Part shown: one piece after another, positions 41,771-64,000 of the stretch | How positions within the stretch are numbered: the stretch's first letter is position 1 | Layout of the letters: each line of letters begins with the position of its first letter | Sequence record: MZ234031.1 | Strand: one strand, 5' to 3' | Source: Escherichia phage vB_EcoM-CHD94UKE2 | DNA: 64,000 nucleotides | Position numbers and translations under genes: made by a program | The notes under the pieces: generated by a model | Databases searched by the model: none | The model's input: the letters and a program-made list of their open reading frames with translations, nothing else | Told to the model about the DNA's origin: nothing

Positions 41771-42498
41771 ATGAAACTAATCTTTTTAAGCGGTGTAAAG
41801 CGTAGTGGAAAAGATACTACTGCTGATTTTATCATGAGCAATTATTCTGCAGTTAAATACCAACTTGCTGGTCCTATTAAGGATGCATTGGCTTATGCAT
41901 GGGGAGTATTTGCAGCAAATACCGACTATCCTTGCTTAACTCGTAAAGAGTTTGAAGGAATTGACTATGATCGTGAGACTAATTTAAATCTAACTAAATT
42001 AGAAGTAATCACGATTATGGAACAAGCATTTTGCTATCTTAATGGTAAAAGCCCAATTAAAGGTGTGTTTGTTTTTGATGACGAAGGGCAAGAATCAGTT
42101 AATTCCGTAGCATTTAACAAGATTATTGACGTTATAAATAATATTGAAGATCAATGGTCAGTCCGTCGTCTGATGCAAGCCCTAGGTACGGATTTGATTG
42201 TTAATAACTTCGACCGCATGTACTGGGTAAAATTATTTGCTTTAGATTATCTTGATAAATTTAACTCAGGTTATGATTATTATTATATCGTTCCTGATAC
42301 CCGTCAAGATCATGAAATGGATGCGGCTAGGGCGATGGGTGCTACAGTAATTCATGTAGTTCGTCCTGGTCAAAAATCCAATGATACACATATTACAGAA
42401 GCTGGATTGCCAATTCGTGATGGCGATTTAGTAATTACAAACGATGGTTCTCTTGAAGAACTTTTTTCTAAAATTAAAAATACACTAAAGGTACTATA

Positions 42499-42499
<1 letters not shown>
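41771..42499 (+). CDS. 1: deoxynucleoside monophosphate kinase gp1
   Basis: 242 aa; P-loop LSGVKRSGKDT; middle promoter upstream. Confidence 0.95.
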
Positions 42500-43184
<685 letters not shown>

Positions 43185-43196
43185 TTTCACAAAGTT

Positions 43197-43236
43197 GTTT
43201 ACATACTGATGAGGTAGTGATACTATTACCTCATCA
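43197..43236 (+). promoter_or_regulatory. early promoter (GTTTAC, 17 nt, TACTAT) embedded in 10-bp-stem hairpin TGATGAGGTA/TACCTCATCA (PeSL-type)
   Basis: -35-like TTTACA 43198-43203, -10 TACTAT 43221-43226 lying in hairpin loop; upstream A/T-rich tract. Confidence 0.75.
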
Positions 43237-43257
43237 AAATTAATTAGGAAAATAAAA

Positions 43258-43515
43258 ATGAAAACTTTCAAAGAGTTTGCTACAAAAACTACTATCACTG
43301 AATCTTCCCACGGTATGGAAGTAAAGCTTGGAATGGCTTTAGCTGAAGCTGAGCGTCTTTTCTCTCGTATTAAAGAACTTGCTGCTGCGGTCGATCCTTC
43401 ATCTTTTAAAGGAGACCAAACTAAAGTTAAAGCACTTTTAGCATTATGCTCCGATGCAGGAGAAATTGCTAAAAATGGTTCTAAGATGAAGAAACGATTA
43501 GAAGATTTAAAATAA
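43258..43515 (+). CDS. internal-protein-like small protein with degenerate capsid-targeting leader
   Basis: 85 aa, MKTFKEFATKTTITE|SSH (ITE fits gp21 (I/L)xE cleavage motif); paralog of ORF 51409; preceded by early promoter stem-loop. Confidence 0.6.
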   Translation: MKTFKEFATKTTITESSHGMEVKLGMALAEAERLFSRIKELAAAVDPSSFKGDQTKVKALLALCSDAGEIAKNGSKMKKRLEDLK

Positions 43516-43527
43516 TTTCACAAAGTT

Positions 43528-43564
43528 GTTTACATAGGGTTTTAGTTGTGATACTATTACCCTA
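43528..43564 (+). promoter_or_regulatory. early promoter, PeSL-type (repeat of 43197 element including upstream AATAATTTCACAAAGTTGTTTACA)
   Basis: TTTACA 43529-43534, TACTAT 43552-43557, flanking inverted repeat ATAGGGT/ACCCTAT. Confidence 0.75.
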
Positions 43565-43586
43565 TCAAAACCAAATGGAAATCAAA

Positions 43587-43820
43587 ATGAAAACTTACCA
43601 AGAATTTATTGCTGAAACTGCTGATGTAAAAGTTGAGTTTATTTACACTGGCAAGAAAGATAAAATGGGTGAAATGCCTCATGGAGTTCTTCGTGATGCA
43701 TTAGATAATTTCGGTCAACTCGCCGCAGAAGATTACGGTGATAAAATTGTTGTTACTGGTCCTGCTGCAGTTATTGAAAAATGGGCAGCAGAAAATAAAT
43801 CAATTTTTCGTAAAAAATAA
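43587..43820 (+). CDS. internal protein with canonical capsid-targeting sequence (IP)
   Basis: ATG 43587 (track ORF starts at upstream GTG); MKTYQEFIAE|TADVK..., 77 aa; preceded by early promoter. Confidence 0.7.
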   Translation: MKTYQEFIAETADVKVEFIYTGKKDKMGEMPHGVLRDALDNFGQLAAEDYGDKIVVTGPAAVIEKWAAENKSIFRKK

Positions 43821-43860
43821 GTTTACTTTTAGATAGGGTAGTGATACTATTACCCTATCT
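43821..43860 (+). promoter_or_regulatory. early promoter, PeSL-type with perfect 10-bp inverted repeat AGATAGGGTA/TACCCTATCT around -10
   Basis: GTTTAC 43821-43826, TACTAT 43845-43850. Confidence 0.75.
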
Positions 43861-43878
43861 ACTACTGAGGAGAATAAA

Positions 43879-44064
43879 ATGAAACGTTGTGAATTAATTC
43901 GAAATGTTGCTATTGCAATTTCTGCTTCCGCTTTCAGTTTTTCAATGTTTGTTGGATTTATATGCGGATTATTGACTACGGCAGAAAATGTTTTTTCACT
44001 TGTAGTAGCATTTTTAATTGGTTTAATTGCTATTGTTATGGATAAAATTTCTAAAGGTGAATAA
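43879..44064 (+). CDS. small hydrophobic membrane protein
   Basis: 61 aa, two hydrophobic helices; GAGGAG RBS; own early promoter. Confidence 0.55.
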   Translation: MKRCELIRNVAIAISASAFSFSMFVGFICGLLTTAENVFSLVVAFLIGLIAIVMDKISKGE

Positions 44065-44462
44065 TGAACGTTGAATATTATGTATATGCGGATTACGAAA
44101 ATAATCCGTCTAAAGATGAAGATAATCGTTTAGGTGTAGATGCTTTCGATTCCCCTGCGGCGGCATGGCAATGGGTTGAAAGAACCGATATTCCTTACCG
44201 TTATATTGAAGTGGTTGACCACGCAGGAAACAAGTATCCTAAGGAAGCATATGTTGCTTCCGGGAAGGTAAATTTCCTTTTGTTTGCAGGTGATAATTAT
44301 TATCCCCGTGGTGGGTATACCGATTTAATTGCTAAAGCATTCTCTGAAGATGAACTCCGTGACATTATCAAAGAAAATGAAAACAAACCGATGGATTCTA
44401 ATCGCTTTGATTGGTGGCAAATCGTAAATGCTAATACTCACACTATTGTTGATGAAGGCTGA
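44064..44462 (+). CDS. hypothetical protein
   Basis: 132 aa; TAATG coupling with previous ORF. Confidence 0.6.
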   Translation: MNVEYYVYADYENNPSKDEDNRLGVDAFDSPAAAWQWVERTDIPYRYIEVVDHAGNKYPKEAYVASGKVNFLLFAGDNYYPRGGYTDLIAKAFSEDELRDIIKENENKPMDSNRFDWWQIVNANTHTIVDEG

Positions 44463-44464
44463 TA

Positions 44465-44752
44465 ATGATTCTTTATGCGAAAGTATCATCCATTGAAAAT
44501 GGATATAAATATGATCAAGACGCGGCTAAAGCTTTGATTGATGATTATGGCATTTTAACATGTTTTGAAGTTGAAAAGGTTTACATTGACCGTTCATCTT
44601 CTCAAGTTAAATTAGTGAAGGAAGAACGTAAATTTAATACAGTAAATTTTGATTTCTTTATTGAAACAGAAAAAGGTCCTCTTGAATATGATATTTTCAA
44701 GAATCCTTTGGGTCTTGAATGCATCGTAAATATGTATTATTATAAATGGTAA
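44465..44752 (+). CDS. hypothetical protein
   Basis: 95 aa ORF immediately upstream of tRNA cluster. Confidence 0.6.
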   Translation: MILYAKVSSIENGYKYDQDAAKALIDDYGILTCFEVEKVYIDRSSSQVKLVKEERKFNTVNFDFFIETEKGPLEYDIFKNPLGLECIVNMYYYKW

Positions 44753-44849
44753 ATATGCTTTAAGAATTATTTGTTATTATTAACTCATATCGCACTGATT
44801 AATACCCTCTATCATCAAGGGTTCTTGCTTAAGAGCCTTTGTTAATAAT

Positions 44850-44922
44850 TGGGAATTAGCCAAGTTGGTAAGGCACTGGATTTTGATTCCAGGATGCAAA
44901 GGTTCGAGTCCTTTATTCCCAG
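44850..44922 (+). tRNA. tRNA-Gln (anticodon UUG)
   Basis: cloverleaf read by hand: acceptor TGGGAAT/ATTCCCA, anticodon loop TTTTGAT, T-loop GGTTCGAGTCC. Confidence 0.85.
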
Positions 44923-44923
44923 C

Positions 44924-45010
44924 GCGAGAATGGCCAAATTGGTAAAGGCACAGCACTTAAAATGCTGCGGAATGATTTCCTTGTGGGTTCGAGTCCCACT
45001 TCTCGCACCA
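44924..45010 (+). tRNA. tRNA-Leu (anticodon UAA), type II with long variable arm, CCA encoded
   Basis: acceptor GCGAGAA/TTCTCGC, anticodon stem CAGCA/TGCTG loop CTTAAAA. Confidence 0.85.
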
Positions 45011-45015
45011 AATTT

Positions 45016-45089
<74 letters not shown>

Positions 45090-45099
45090 ATTTAATTTA

Positions 45100-45173
45100 C
45101 TCCGTGTAGCTCAGTTTGGTAGAGCGTCTGCTTTGGGAGCAGAATGTCGTAGGTTCAAATCCTGCCACGGAGA
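45100..45173 (+). tRNA. tRNA-Pro (anticodon UGG)
   Basis: acceptor CTCCGTG/CACGGAG, anticodon stem TCTGC/GCAGA loop TTTGGGA. Confidence 0.8.
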
Positions 45174-45175
45174 CT

Positions 45176-45265
45176 GGAGGCGTGGCAGAGTGGTTTAATG
45201 CACCGGTCTTGAAAACCGGCAGTCGCTCCGGCGACTCATAGGTTCAAATCCTATCGCCGCCGCCA
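45176..45265 (+). tRNA. tRNA-Ser (anticodon UGA), type II
   Basis: anticodon stem CCGGT... loop CTTGAAA, variable-arm hairpin GTCGC/GCGAC, T-loop GGTTCAAATCC, CCA encoded; acceptor position 3:70 reads A:G. Confidence 0.8.
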
Positions 45266-45270
45266 GTTTT

Positions 45271-45346
45271 GCTGATTTAGCTCAGTAGGTAGAGCAACTC
45301 ACTTGTAATGAGAAGGTCGGCGGTTCGATTCCGTCAATCAGCACCA
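45271..45346 (+). tRNA. tRNA-Thr (anticodon UGU)
   Basis: acceptor GCTGATT/AATCAGC, anticodon loop CTTGTAA, CCA encoded. Confidence 0.8.
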
Positions 45347-45347
45347 A

Positions 45348-45422
45348 GGCCCTGTAGCTGGAAGGTTCAAGCAAGCGACTCATAATCGCCAGATGGTGGT
45401 TCAATTCCACCCAGGGCCACCA
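45348..45422 (+). tRNA. tRNA-Ile (anticodon CAU, presumably lysidine-modified to read AUA as in T4)
   Basis: acceptor GGCCCTG/CAGGGCC, anticodon loop CTCATAA, CCA encoded. Confidence 0.75.
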
Positions 45423-45431
45423 AATTAATTT

Positions 45432-45518
45432 GGGGAGTTATCCCGTAGAGGTAGCGGTGTGGACTGTAAATCCATTGTCATTGCGACTCGGGTGGTTCGA
45501 CTCCACCATTCCCCACCA
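45432..45518 (+). tRNA. tRNA-Tyr-like (anticodon GUA), type II; D-arm atypical
   Basis: acceptor GGGGAGT/ATTCCCC (one G-U), anticodon stem GTGGA/TCCAT loop CTGTAAA, long variable arm, T-arm GGTGG-TTCGACT-CCACC, CCA encoded. Confidence 0.6.
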
Positions 45519-45522
45519 ATTT

Positions 45523-45597
45523 GGATGTGTAGCTCAATGGCAGAGCGATCGCCTGTTAAGCGATTGGTTATAGGTTCGAATCCTATCACGTCCGCCA
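45523..45597 (+). tRNA. tRNA-Asn (anticodon GUU)
   Basis: acceptor GGATGTG/CACGTCC, D-stem GCTC/GAGC, anticodon stem ATCGC/GCGAT loop CTGTTAA, CCA encoded. Confidence 0.8.
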
Positions 45598-45601
45598 AAT
45601 T

Positions 45602-45617
45602 TGTGACAACTGTCACA
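45602..45617. repeat. perfect palindrome TGTGACA-AC-TGTCACA in spacer between tRNA-Asn and tRNA-His
   Basis: read directly; 7-bp inverted repeat with 2-nt spacer. Confidence 0.7.
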
Positions 45618-45711
45618 TTAATATCTACTTGACGCGATTATAGGGGTTGAACTGATCACTCTTCTCTTAATTTCGTGTGAAGACATCTTGATTGTTGGAG
45701 TAGGTATTAAT

Positions 45712-45787
45712 GTGGCCGTAGTTCAGTTGGTAGAACTCGAGATTGTGATTCTCGTAGTCATGGGTTCGACTCCCATCGGTCACCCCA
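45712..45787 (+). tRNA. tRNA-His (anticodon GUG)
   Basis: acceptor GTGGCCG/CGGTCAC, D-stem GTTC/GAAC, anticodon stem CGAGA/TCTCG loop TTGTGAT, discriminator C, CCA encoded. Confidence 0.8.
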
Positions 45788-45791
45788 ATTA

Positions 45792-45867
45792 CGGGGCATA
45801 GCTCAGAAGGAAGAGCAAGGACCTTCTAAGTCCTAGGTCGTAGGTTCGATCCCTACTGCCTCGACCA
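45792..45867 (+). tRNA. tRNA-Arg (anticodon UCU)
   Basis: acceptor CGGGGCA/TGCCTCG, anticodon stem AGGAC/GTCCT loop CTTCTAA, CCA encoded. Confidence 0.85.
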
Positions 45868-50887: not shown

Positions 50888-51690
<803 letters not shown>

Positions 51691-51691
51691 T

Positions 51692-51721
51692 GTTTACTTC
51701 CTCCAAGTACTTTGATACTAT
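51692..51721 (+). promoter_or_regulatory. early promoter upstream of denV
   Basis: GTTTAC 51692-51697, TACTAT 51716-51721, 17-nt spacing. Confidence 0.7.
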
Positions 51722-51748
51722 ACATTCATCAACTACTTGGAGGAAATT

Positions 51749-52162
51749 ATGACTCGTATCAATTTAACACTTGTTTCTGAACTGACCGACCAACATCTTA
51801 TGGCTGAGTATCGTGAATTACCACGCGTATTTGGTGCAGTCCGTAAACATGTTCAAAACGGTAAACGTGTAAAGGATTTTAAAATCTCTCCAACATTTAT
51901 CTTAGGCACAGGTCACGTAACATTCTTTTATGACAAACTCGAATTTTTACGTTTACGTCAAATCGAGCTAATCGCTGAATGCTTGAAACGTGGTTTCAAA
52001 ATCAAGGACACGACTGTCCAGGATATTTCCGACATCCCTGTCGAATTTCGTAATAATTATGTCCCGTCCGAAGCGTCCATTGCGATAAGTCAAGCTCGCT
52101 TAGATGAAAAAATTGCTCAACGCCCTACTTGGTACAAATACTATGGTAAATCAATTTACTAA
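51749..52162 (+). CDS. denV: endonuclease V (pyrimidine dimer DNA glycosylase)
   Basis: track ORF starts at TTG 51737; ATG 51749 after GGAGGAAA; [29 protein letters not shown]... matches T4 EndoV. Confidence 0.95.
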
Positions 52163-52168
52163 GGAAAA

Positions 52169-52429
52169 ATGAAAATGTATCAAGAATTTATCGCTGAAGC
52201 AGATGCCAAAGGCCCCAAATTTAAAGTTAAAGCTTTCGTTGGTGATGCCGAAGATTTTGGCTCATTAAAACGTAATGGGTATTTTTTCTTAGGTGGTGAT
52301 GGTAAAGAAATCAACACCTATGCAAAACGTAGTGAAATTGCTTATGTTGCTGCAAGTCCTAAAGTAGATGTTGACGATATTGGATACGATTTTAACAACT
52401 TCGGAATTATTTCTGGCGGTGAAGCTTAA
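52169..52429 (+). CDS. internal protein with capsid-targeting sequence (ipII-like size)
   Basis: MKMYQEFIAE|ADAKGPKF..., 86 aa. Confidence 0.75.
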   Translation: MKMYQEFIAEADAKGPKFKVKAFVGDAEDFGSLKRNGYFFLGGDGKEINTYAKRSEIAYVAASPKVDVDDIGYDFNNFGIISGGEA

Positions 52430-52432
52430 ACG

Positions 52433-52462
52433 GTTTACGCTTAAGTATTAATATGGTATAAT
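52433..52462 (+). promoter_or_regulatory. early promoter upstream of ipIII-like gene
   Basis: GTTTAC 52433-52438, TGGTATAAT -10 at 52457-52462. Confidence 0.65.
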
Positions 52463-52492
52463 TACTCTATCAAAACAAACAAGGAAACAAAA

Positions 52493-53071
52493 ATGAAAAC
52501 ATATAAAGAATTTATTGCTGAAGCTTCTGTAGTAAAGGCCAAAGGCATTAATAAGGACGAGTGGAACTATCGTGGTGGAAACGGCTTTGACCCTAAAACA
52601 GCCCCTATTGAACGATACTTAGCTACAAAAGCTTCCGATTTTAAAGCTTTCGCTTGGGAAGGACTTCGCTGGCGTACCGATTTAAATATTGAAGTTGACG
52701 GACTTAAATTTGCTCATATTGAAGATGTTGTTGCTAGTAACTTAGACGCAGCTTTTGTTAAAGCCGACAGTGATCTTCGTCGCTGGAATTTAAAACTGTT
52801 CTCTAAACAAAAAGGCCCGAAGTTTGTGCCTAAAGCCGGTAAATGGGTCATTGATAATAAATTAGCTAAGGCTGTCAACTACGCTGGTCTTGAATTCGCC
52901 AAGCACAAATCATCATGGAAAGGTCTTGATGCAATGGCTTTCCGTAAAGAATTTGCCGATGTTATGGCTAAAGGCGGCTTTAAGGCAGAAATAGATACCT
53001 CTAAAGGTACGTTTAAGGACGCTAATGTTCAGTACGCTTACGCCGTTGCTAATGCAGCCCGTGGTAATTAA
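52493..53071 (+). CDS. internal protein with capsid-targeting sequence (ipIII-like size)
   Basis: MKTYKEFIAE|ASVVKAKG..., 192 aa (T4 IPIII about 194 aa); own early promoter. Confidence 0.8.
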   Translation: MKTYKEFIAEASVVKAKGINKDEWNYRGGNGFDPKTAPIERYLATKASDFKAFAWEGLRWRTDLNIEVDGLKFAHIEDVVASNLDAAFVKADSDLRRWNLKLFSKQKGPKFVPKAGKWVIDNKLAKAVNYAGLEFAKHKSSWKGLDAMAFRKEFADVMAKGGFKAEIDTSKGTFKDANVQYAYAVANAARGN

Positions 53072-63934: not shown

Positions 63935-63964
63935 GTTTACAGAAGGGTAGTAGTGTGATACTAT
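63935..63964 (+). promoter_or_regulatory. early promoter, PeSL-type (GGGTAG...TACCCTATC)
   Basis: GTTTAC 63935-63940, TACTAT 63959-63964. Confidence 0.7.
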
Positions 63965-64000
63965 TACCCTATCAAAACAAATGTGAGATTGGAGAATAAA

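Follow-up and report, generated by a model that had tools for sequence, protein, structure and literature searches.

Promoter–hairpin units as likely homology patches for internal protein gene exchange at the IP1 locus of a T6-type Tequatrovirus

In the 64,000-nt stretch of Escherichia phage vB_EcoM-CHD94UKE2 DNA analyzed here (accession number MZ234031.1; this whole stretch is called the window), three near-identical promoters, each overlapping a hairpin, stood ahead of three small open reading frames (ORFs) downstream of 57B, which raised the question of whether such units only express these genes or also help to exchange them between phages. The window phage was a Tequatrovirus, and the interval was identified with high confidence as the 'IP1' locus of a T-even phage in its T6 configuration (acb1/57B, ip5, ip6, and trna.4). 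The stretch 42500-45000 was matched by 881 phage records, nearly all T4-like; it was 100% identical in Escherichia phages vB_EcoM-G3F7, vB_EcoM-G3F10, WilhelmHis, and UTI-E2 and nearly 100% identical in Proteus phage Isf-Pm2. T6 displayed the same gene order as the window, with annotated Ip5 and Ip6 and 98% identity over 43100-44063, while T4 had the same frame but carried ipI alone between 57B and trna.4. The window was one more copy of the T6-type arrangement, a textbook case. The genes of the region were as follows:

41771-42499, + strand: gene 1
42499-42729, + strand: 57A
42726-43184, + strand: 57B (acb1), conserved left flank of the variable locus, ending D-D-L-K-stop, in the same position as T4 57B
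43258-43515, + strand: ip5-like internal protein gene, 85 aa, leader MKTFKEFATK...ITE
43587-43820, + strand: ip6-like internal protein gene, 77 aa, leader MKTYQEFIAE
43879-44064, + strand: trna.4 homolog, 61 aa, conserved right flank (phrog_1692; T4 trna.4)
44064-44462, + strand: trna.3, overlapping trna.4 by 1 nt
44465-44752, + strand: trna.2, 2 nt after trna.3
44850-45867, + strand: eleven tRNA genes, beginning about 1 kb downstream of unit 3 (see below)

The left flank 57B belonged to Acb1 (Pfam PF23474, E 2.7e-60), an anti-CBASS nuclease family, and the internal protein (IP) cassettes thus adjoined another counter-defence gene. The right flank, a homolog of T4 Trna.4, was present in 45 of the 50 loci screened (T4 and T6 included), and three of the five loci without a recognized trna.4 had a divergent ORF for a membrane protein of about the same size. 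The 61-aa Trna.4 product was hydrophobic over most of its length, peaking near residues 37-57 (15-residue hydropathy windows), which agreed with its preliminary description as a membrane protein.

Between the flanks, the ip5-like product matched phrog_3499 (internal head protein, E 1.2e-49) and the ip6-like product matched phrog_8111 (internal virion protein, E 1.2e-52), and both began with 11-aa capsid-targeting leaders of the MKTYQEFIAE type (MKTFKEFATKT in Ip5 and MKTYQEFIAET in Ip6), so that the two cargo genes had been rightly taken for CTS proteins. Together they filled the slot of T4 ipI and T6 Ip5/Ip6: (i) ip5 was annotated as Ip5 in RB9 and T6 and was absent from ZN18, RB18, and T4, and (ii) ip6 was annotated as Ip6 in RB18 and T6 and was absent from ESh17 and T4. 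For ip6, an ATG further upstream (43575) was chosen in some annotations. The Pfam search gave no match for the three cargo ORFs (85, 77, and 61 aa), and the PDB sequence search gave no match for Ip6 and only chance-level matches for Ip5. The likeness of Ip5 to Ip6 was limited to the 11-aa leader, so these two were not tandem duplicates; the likeness of Ip6 to T4 IpI was likewise limited to the leader. Ip5 and Ip6 are very likely packaged in the head via the leader peptide and injected with the DNA, and by analogy they probably inhibit host restriction as Ip1-Ip3 do. Each of Ip1, Ip2, and Ip3 inhibits a single GmrSD-type restriction enzyme, and reviews and recent papers present the IP loci as encoding diverse injected anti-restriction proteins with the leader alone in common.

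Three early promoters of the T4 type, composed of GTTTAC, a TGn-containing spacer of 17 bp, and TACTAT, were located at 43197, 43528, and 43821, exactly where they had been placed before. Their units were composed as follows:

43197-43236, + strand: unit 1, with -35 GTTTAC at 43197-43202, TG at 43218-43219, and -10 TACTAT at 43221-43226
43207-43216/43227-43236, + strand: hairpin arms of unit 1, perfect, 10 bp, predicted start near A43233
43528-43571, + strand: unit 2, with -35 at 43528-43533 and -10 TACTAT at 43552-43557
43534-43540/43559-43565, + strand: hairpin arms of unit 2, 7 bp plus an inner 4 bp, predicted start near A43564
43821-43861, + strand: unit 3, directly after the ip6 stop, with -35 at 43821-43826 and -10 at 43845-43850
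43830-43840/43851-43861, + strand: hairpin arms of unit 3, perfect, 11 bp, predicted start near A43857

The 30-nt pattern GTTTAC-N14-GTGATACTAT was matched without mismatches at these three sites and elsewhere in the window only at 63935; with up to three mismatches allowed, it had 11 matches in the window versus 0.78 expected, and no shuffle reached 11. All three units matched the UP/-35/TGn/-10 description of T4 early promoters, fitted TTTACW-N17-TAYWAT (TTTACA, TTTACA, and TTTACT in units 1, 2, and 3, respectively, each with 17 nt before TACTAT), and had 9 of 12 matches to TTGACA-N17-TATAAT in the sigma-70 consensus scan. Each was preceded by an A/T-rich tract containing the upstream stop codon and carried at its 3' end a Shine-Dalgarno sequence and start codon, about 25 nt downstream of the promoter. 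Over 49 nt, unit 1 did not differ from the region ahead of T4 ipI. As judged from their sequence, the three sites would be strong sigma-70 (T4 early-type) promoters.

The preliminary description treated these units as three cassettes, each driving one small ORF. A sequence scan detected no promoter–hairpin unit or terminator between trna.4–trna.3–trna.2 and the tRNA genes; because trna.4 was conserved and contiguous with trna.3 and trna.2 without an intervening unit, unit 3 was no one-gene cassette and was instead the head of the conserved trna.4–trna.3–trna.2 transcription unit plus the right-hand border of the variable slot. The description needed correction for unit 3 and held for the rest.

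In each unit, the spacer was complementary to the first ~10 transcribed bases, which placed the -10 element in a hairpin loop as previously noted; the perfect arms of units 1 and 3 enclosed 10 nt that consisted exactly of TGn plus TACTAT. The arms were TGATGAGGTA, ATAGGGT, and TAGATAGGGTA in units 1, 2, and 3, respectively, giving A/T-rich stems with perfect arms of 10, 7, and 11 bp; the earlier figure of 7-10 bp was close and is extended here to 7-11 bp. For units 1, 2, and 3, respectively, the predicted folding energies were -17.4 kcal/mol (z-score -5.4), -15.6 kcal/mol (z-score -4.0), and -18.5 kcal/mol (z-score -4.7), and none of 200 shuffles was as stable. The Rfam search with the hairpins returned no family.

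The hairpin appeared to be under selection. When the 14-nt spacer alone was shuffled, with the -35, TGn, -10, and downstream bases held constant, 36 of 44 distinct units folded better than at least 95% of shuffles, and the exceptions were mostly hybrid units (see below). A perfect complementary run of at least 7 nt between the spacer and its own first 10 downstream nt occurred in 21 of 49 units versus 4.2% of non-cognate pairings, and runs of 9-10 nt occurred in 13 of 49 units versus 0 of 1764 non-cognate pairings. In other genera, the hairpin over the -10 element was kept with different arms (GGGCTAT/ATAGCCC, GGGTTAT/ATAACCC, GATGGGATAA/TTATCCCATC, and GGTAGGACTA/TAGTCCTA, for example). A fixed-register covariation analysis of 43 distinct units, in which 64.7% of cells were paired, gave a score of 0.118 that was reached by 56 of 500 shuffles; the score was not significant because the stem register differed between unit types, which set the stem 3 nt apart, with slides of -3 and +3 pairing almost equally well. 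Since the arms varied with complementarity kept, a nucleic-acid structure was favored and a protein operator disfavored, and a palindromic operator for a dimeric protein was rejected. Scanning viral contigs for TTTAC-N15-TGATACTATTA gave 120 loci, mostly chance matches in unrelated contigs, with about 20 from T4-like genomes; further stem variants were found among them, together with some promoters that had the same core without a hairpin.

What such hairpins do was considered first for transcription. That they are terminators or attenuators insulating each cassette from upstream transcription is rather unlikely: the hairpins are stable and seemingly selected, the full hairpin would form in read-through RNA alone, and terminator-like activity was measured for the PeSL211/210 stem-loop (Arbiol 2010, PMC2839356), but the stems of units 1, 2, and 3 were followed by AAAATT, AAAACC, and CTACTG, respectively, with no T-run, and the terminator scan of 42400-45000 returned 0 sites, so that a terminator role of the RB49/phi1 type is doubtful here. 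The A/T-rich stems were also unlike the G/C-rich RB49 stems, and an intrinsic (Rho-independent) terminator has a G/C-rich hairpin followed by a T-run, a form that none of the three units took. Moreover, head proteins are needed late, and the nearest late-promoter motif upstream lay at 42133 inside gene 1, so supply from that motif would need read-through.

A translational role was weighed next. Hairpins at the T4 lysozyme gene e, soc, and I-TevI hide the ribosome-binding site in read-through RNA, and an internal promoter gives a translatable RNA. The three units resembled them in having the promoter inside the hairpin and in that read-through RNA alone would fold; whereas the e/soc/I-TevI hairpins sequester the ribosome-binding site, the 3' arm in all three IP-locus units ended 4-8 nt ahead of the Shine-Dalgarno sequence, leaving the ribosome site unsequestered. 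Units with a promoter inside the hairpin, so that read-through RNA alone could fold as at e, soc, and I-TevI, were also present in the window at 51692 and 55247.

The likeness of the first two units extended into the genes before them, as a direct repeat of 82 nt with 82% identity:

43169-43250, + strand: direct repeat copy 1, comprising the 57B 3' end, A/T-rich upstream tract, unit 1, and leader
43500-43581, + strand: direct repeat copy 2, comprising the ip5 3' end (E-D-L-K-stop), upstream tract, unit 2, and leader

Its core was 33 identical nt (43173-43205 and 43504-43536) running from GAT TTA AAA TAA through to the -35 element, which accounts for the roughly 35 nt including D-L-K-stop that had been reported as common to the first two copies. 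A recent duplication of the 57B end was considered as the source of the shared D-L-K-stop and was rejected because the Ip5 family ended in EDLK-stop even in L149 (a locus whose genus is distant and whose downstream promoter differs) and because the 57B C-terminus (D/E)DLK was kept across nearly all loci compared; it might possibly derive from an old capture event.

The locus comparison was applied to 13 GenBank phages and 36 IMG/VR contigs found through 57B, with T6 added later (14 GenBank loci with T6 included, out of about 880 matching records). The 45 loci with both 57B and trna.4 harbored 0-5 leader-bearing ORFs in between, drawn from 12 mature-sequence families. The 17 Tequatrovirus loci displayed 11 different arrangements, including ipI alone, Ip5+IpI, Ip6 alone, IpI+Ip6, Ip5 alone, and three-gene arrays. 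Alignment to other T-even genomes, which had been suggested as a way of seeing whether cassette content varies, thus gave varying content rather than the same genes in the same order in all relatives.

These arrays also bear on whether the repeats are the residue of tandem duplication and divergence of one ancestral IP gene with its promoter, nothing being mobile. Such an origin would suit the likeness of promoter, leader RNA, and first 11 codons between neighbors, as well as the Ip5 paralog (48% identical) at the second IP locus, which in the window lay behind gene e, abutting the previous ORF with no promoter. It is nevertheless extremely improbable, given that (i) no similarity extended past the 11-aa leader for Ip5/Ip6 or Ip6/T4 IpI, (ii) twelve unrelated families filled the slot in many orders, (iii) near-identical phages differed by exactly one cassette, and (iv) hybrid units existed (see below).

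In non-Tequatrovirus genera, 31 of 79 junctions lacked a promoter, the IP gene directly adjoining the ORF before it and often overlapping it through ATGA, and those arrays varied in content too; the promoter units are therefore not the sole recombination linkers, and leader codons and flanks must also act as such.

Two natural single-cassette deletions were used to map crossovers, with the following results: (i) ZN18 equaled the window minus ip5 and was identical to it on both sides, having the 57B-side sequence as far as the 33-nt identity and, from there on, the sequence that follows ip5, so that the crossover fell inside this identity, and (ii) ESh17 corresponded to the window without ip6, the crossover lying within GTGATACTATTACCCTATC, the -10 core stretch common to units 2 and 3. 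The crossover intervals were 33 nt and 19 nt, respectively; they lay in different parts of the unit (upstream of the hairpin versus the -10 core plus 3' arm), and each was the longest identity stretch available locally. Since the crossovers used different unit parts, each in the longest local identity, ordinary homologous recombination fits both better than a site-specific cut. The earlier reading of the units as mobile regulatory cassettes gained from these results: flanks were constant, content was variable, the crossovers of single-cassette differences fell inside promoter units, and the same locus was described in the literature (see below).

Hybrid units were identified in T2, RB9, Pu-Krd-SF6, F13076, L151, and L160, the last two being loci of the comparison. 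Their 5' arm was that of the upstream gene's usual partner, and their 3' arm plus leader was that of the downstream gene's; their stems were weakened to between -1.9 and -10.1 kcal/mol versus about -15 to -18 kcal/mol in cognate units. From these arm partners and weakened stems, the unit is divided at the -10 core, with the 5' half going with the left gene and the 3' half with the right gene. Hybrids with a broken stem persisted in viable phages, and the hairpin is thus dispensable, at least in the short term.

With the crossovers and hybrids at hand, the alternative that the conserved flanks (57B and trna.4) and leader codons are the main linkers, the units being merely ordinary early promoters, can be judged as possible but on the doubtful side. 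Around their start codons, the two IP genes were 77% identical over the first 44 nt, and the many promoterless IP genes of other genera stood in arrays that still differed; against this, both mapped single-cassette crossovers were in the promoter unit and not in the leader codons, and the hybrid units switched between 5' arm and 3' arm.

Site- or structure-specific exchange of an integron-like kind, with the hairpin or cruciform recognized or cut (by T4 endonuclease VII, for example), would be consistent with the partner switch inside the loop or -10 core in most hybrid units, and the idea was raised in Arbiol 2010 (PMC2839356), where PeSL cassettes were likened to integrons. It is judged quite unlikely, since the two mapped crossovers lay in different unit parts that were both the longest identity available and since the variable arm sequences make a sequence-specific protein unlikely. 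Like integron cassettes with their attC sites, the IP cassettes were small single-gene promoter-linked units with imperfect palindromes, arrayed in tandem at one locus; unlike the one fixed crossover position of attC, the crossovers here lay in different unit parts, and, in a further difference from integron cassettes, each window unit carried its own promoter. We know of no integrase for T-even IP cassettes.

Taken together, the promoter–hairpin units are in all likelihood identity patches for IP gene exchange by homologous recombination. The units plus leader-peptide codons would provide patches of 20-80 bp of near identity in direct orientation, and the phage's very active homologous recombination would use them to delete, insert, or swap single IP genes, within one genome or between co-infecting phages, in such a way that the expression signals would never be disturbed by cassette exchange. 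The transcript from a unit's own promoter would lack the 5' arm and could not form the hairpin, so the whole hairpin would exist only in read-through RNA from upstream or in single-stranded DNA. Of this explanation, the sequence features, predicted hairpin stability, spacer complementarity, varying gene content, and crossover intervals are observed, while promoter activity, the part played by the hairpin, the pathway of recombination, and the Ip5 and Ip6 functions are inferred.

A further proposal goes beyond homology patches: the spacer may co-evolve with the first ~10 transcribed bases, so that each unit would consist of two parts, a 5' arm that accompanies the upstream gene and a 3' arm that accompanies the downstream one, with folding confined to 'cognate' junctions, and the folded form may attract breaks or strand invasion (through endonuclease VII, for example). 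This is put forward as a speculation with only a slight chance of being right.

The phenomenon itself is already known: according to the papers that cite it, it was described by Repoila et al. in 1994, and it was then named PeSL in Arbiol 2010 and Comeau 2014. As these citing papers relate, repeated early-promoter blocks (~70 bp) flank IP genes at two T-even IP loci (Repoila, Tetart, Bouet and Krisch, EMBO J 1994); the locus (downstream of 57B), gene class, Ip5/Ip6 nomenclature, and proposal of recombinational shuffling are the same as for the window, and nothing of substance there sets the two apart, the window phage being a later isolate with the T6-type arrangement.

The relation to the RB49/phi1 PeSLs is one of analogy: the T-even IP-locus elements were considered analogs, not homologs, of these, with T4 early promoters and weaker A/T-rich stem-loops (Arbiol 2010, PMC2839356). 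The two systems had in common a promoter combined with a stem-loop and set between variable small ORFs, a stem that overlaps the -10 element (one of five subclasses of RB49/phi1 PeSLs), and a proposed function as linkers of homology through which cassettes are gained and lost (PMC2839356). They differed in that (i) the RB49/phi1 PeSLs have near-perfect TTGACA/TATAAT (N17), while the window units had GTTTAC/TACTAT, and (ii) the RB49/phi1 stems are G/C-rich (polyG ... polyC), while the window arms were A/T-rich. For the RB49/phi1 PeSLs, promoter and terminator activities were shown and mini-circles detected (Arbiol 2010, PMC2839356); for the three sites of the window, no transcription start-site, 3'-end, or mini-circle data were found in the literature searched.

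Elements of the T4/PST pair were later also named PeSL and given the consensus TTTACW-N17-TAYWAT, again with reference to the 1994 IP-locus work (Comeau, Arbiol and Krisch 2014, PMC4122927). The T4/PST PeSLs shared with the window units this consensus, the adjacent or overlapping stem-loop, a 3' end carrying a Shine-Dalgarno sequence plus start codon, and a hyperplastic position beside genes differing between close relatives; the PST set has stem-loops just upstream of the promoter (PMC4122927, Fig. 3 legend), whereas the window stems spanned the spacer and start region.

Compared to these reports, the added value of the present analysis is modest: two natural deletions were mapped, hybrid junctions were catalogued, and cognate versus non-cognate spacer complementarity was determined. 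If a folded DNA cruciform or single-strand hairpin did attract breaks or strand invasion, the IP locus would amount to a gene-cassette system that is targeted by structure and needs no integrase, going beyond homology patches alone, and hybrid junctions would stay 'cold' for as long as no compensatory changes had rebuilt the stem. By analogy with Ip1-Ip3, Ip5 and Ip6 would be reasonable candidates for anti-restriction screens. The locus shows T4-like phages swapping small injected anti-defence proteins with their expression signals undisturbed, and such swapping of IP genes is relevant to host range and to cocktails for phage therapy, a point made in 1994, 2010, and 2014.

57B, the gene upstream of the variable internal-protein slot (57B to trna.4, holding an ip5-like and an ip6-like gene), occupied 42726-43184 and matched Pfam Acb1, an anti-CBASS nuclease (E 2.7e-60), and the slot thus directly adjoined another counter-defence gene. 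Several database records labelled 57B 'hypothetical' or 'RNA ligase'. The codons D-L-K-stop, shared by the ends of 57B and ip5, recurred in relatives: (i) among all 57B ends compared, (D/E)-D-L-K-stop closed the gene in nearly all Tevenvirinae loci; and (ii) E-D-L-K-stop ended the Ip5 family also in L149 (3742-3984), a related locus from a distant genus with a different downstream promoter. The shared codons were therefore old, and their origin as the scar of a recent duplication was contradicted by both sets of ends.

The Ip6 gene of the G3F7 record (a T4-like phage) started at 43575, giving MEIKMKTYQEF; the ATG at 43587, with GGAA 8 nt upstream, placed the leader (the capsid-targeting peptide of internal proteins) at the Ip6 N-terminus, and the RB18 and T6 records began the gene at the equivalent ATG.

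Features of the window outside the slot
42133-42140, late-promoter motif TATAAATA within gene 1
44504-44511, late-promoter motif TATAAATA within trna.2
44850-45867, tRNA cluster of eleven genes (Gln, Leu, Gly, Pro, Ser, Thr, Met, Tyr, Asn, His, Arg)
50924-53071, second internal-protein locus, in the order e (lysozyme), Ip5 paralog, promoter-hairpin, denV, 86-aa ORF, IpIII-like ORF
51409-51690, leader-bearing ORF, Ip5 paralog (48% identical), overlapping the end of e and lacking a promoter
51692-51745, early-promoter/hairpin unit between the Ip5 paralog and denV, predicted fold -24.2 kcal/mol
52169-52429, leader-bearing ORF of 86 aa
52493-53071, IpIII-like ORF of 192 aa
55247-55300, early-promoter/hairpin unit, predicted fold -21.6 kcal/mol
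63935-64000, exact promoter-pattern match with hairpin, its gene lying past the window end

The second internal-protein locus differed in gene order from that of T4, which we take to be e, ipIII, ipII, denV. The tRNA cluster also differed: T4 had eight tRNA genes with the homing-endonuclease gene segB inside the cluster, while the window had eleven and no segB within 44850-45867, and some relatives carried an HNH or seg gene adjoining tRNA-Gln or tRNA-Leu.

In the units at 51692 and 55247 the following gene's Shine-Dalgarno sequence fell inside the 3' arm, and the ribosome site would be masked in read-through RNA and free in RNA from the unit's own promoter; the three units at 43197, 43528, and 43821 were not arranged in this way. 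The 3' half of the unit at 63935 (TACCCTATCAAAACAAATG) was the same as the Ip6-type leader in relatives.

The products of the internal-protein genes are needed while the head is being assembled, yet no late-promoter motif TATAAATA was present directly upstream of these genes. GGAG, the cleavage motif of the T4 endoribonuclease RegB, was found in the Shine-Dalgarno region of trna.4 (43863-43879), while the two internal-protein genes carried AGGAAA and TGGAAA in its place, and by virtue of these motifs they may avoid early mRNA inactivation.
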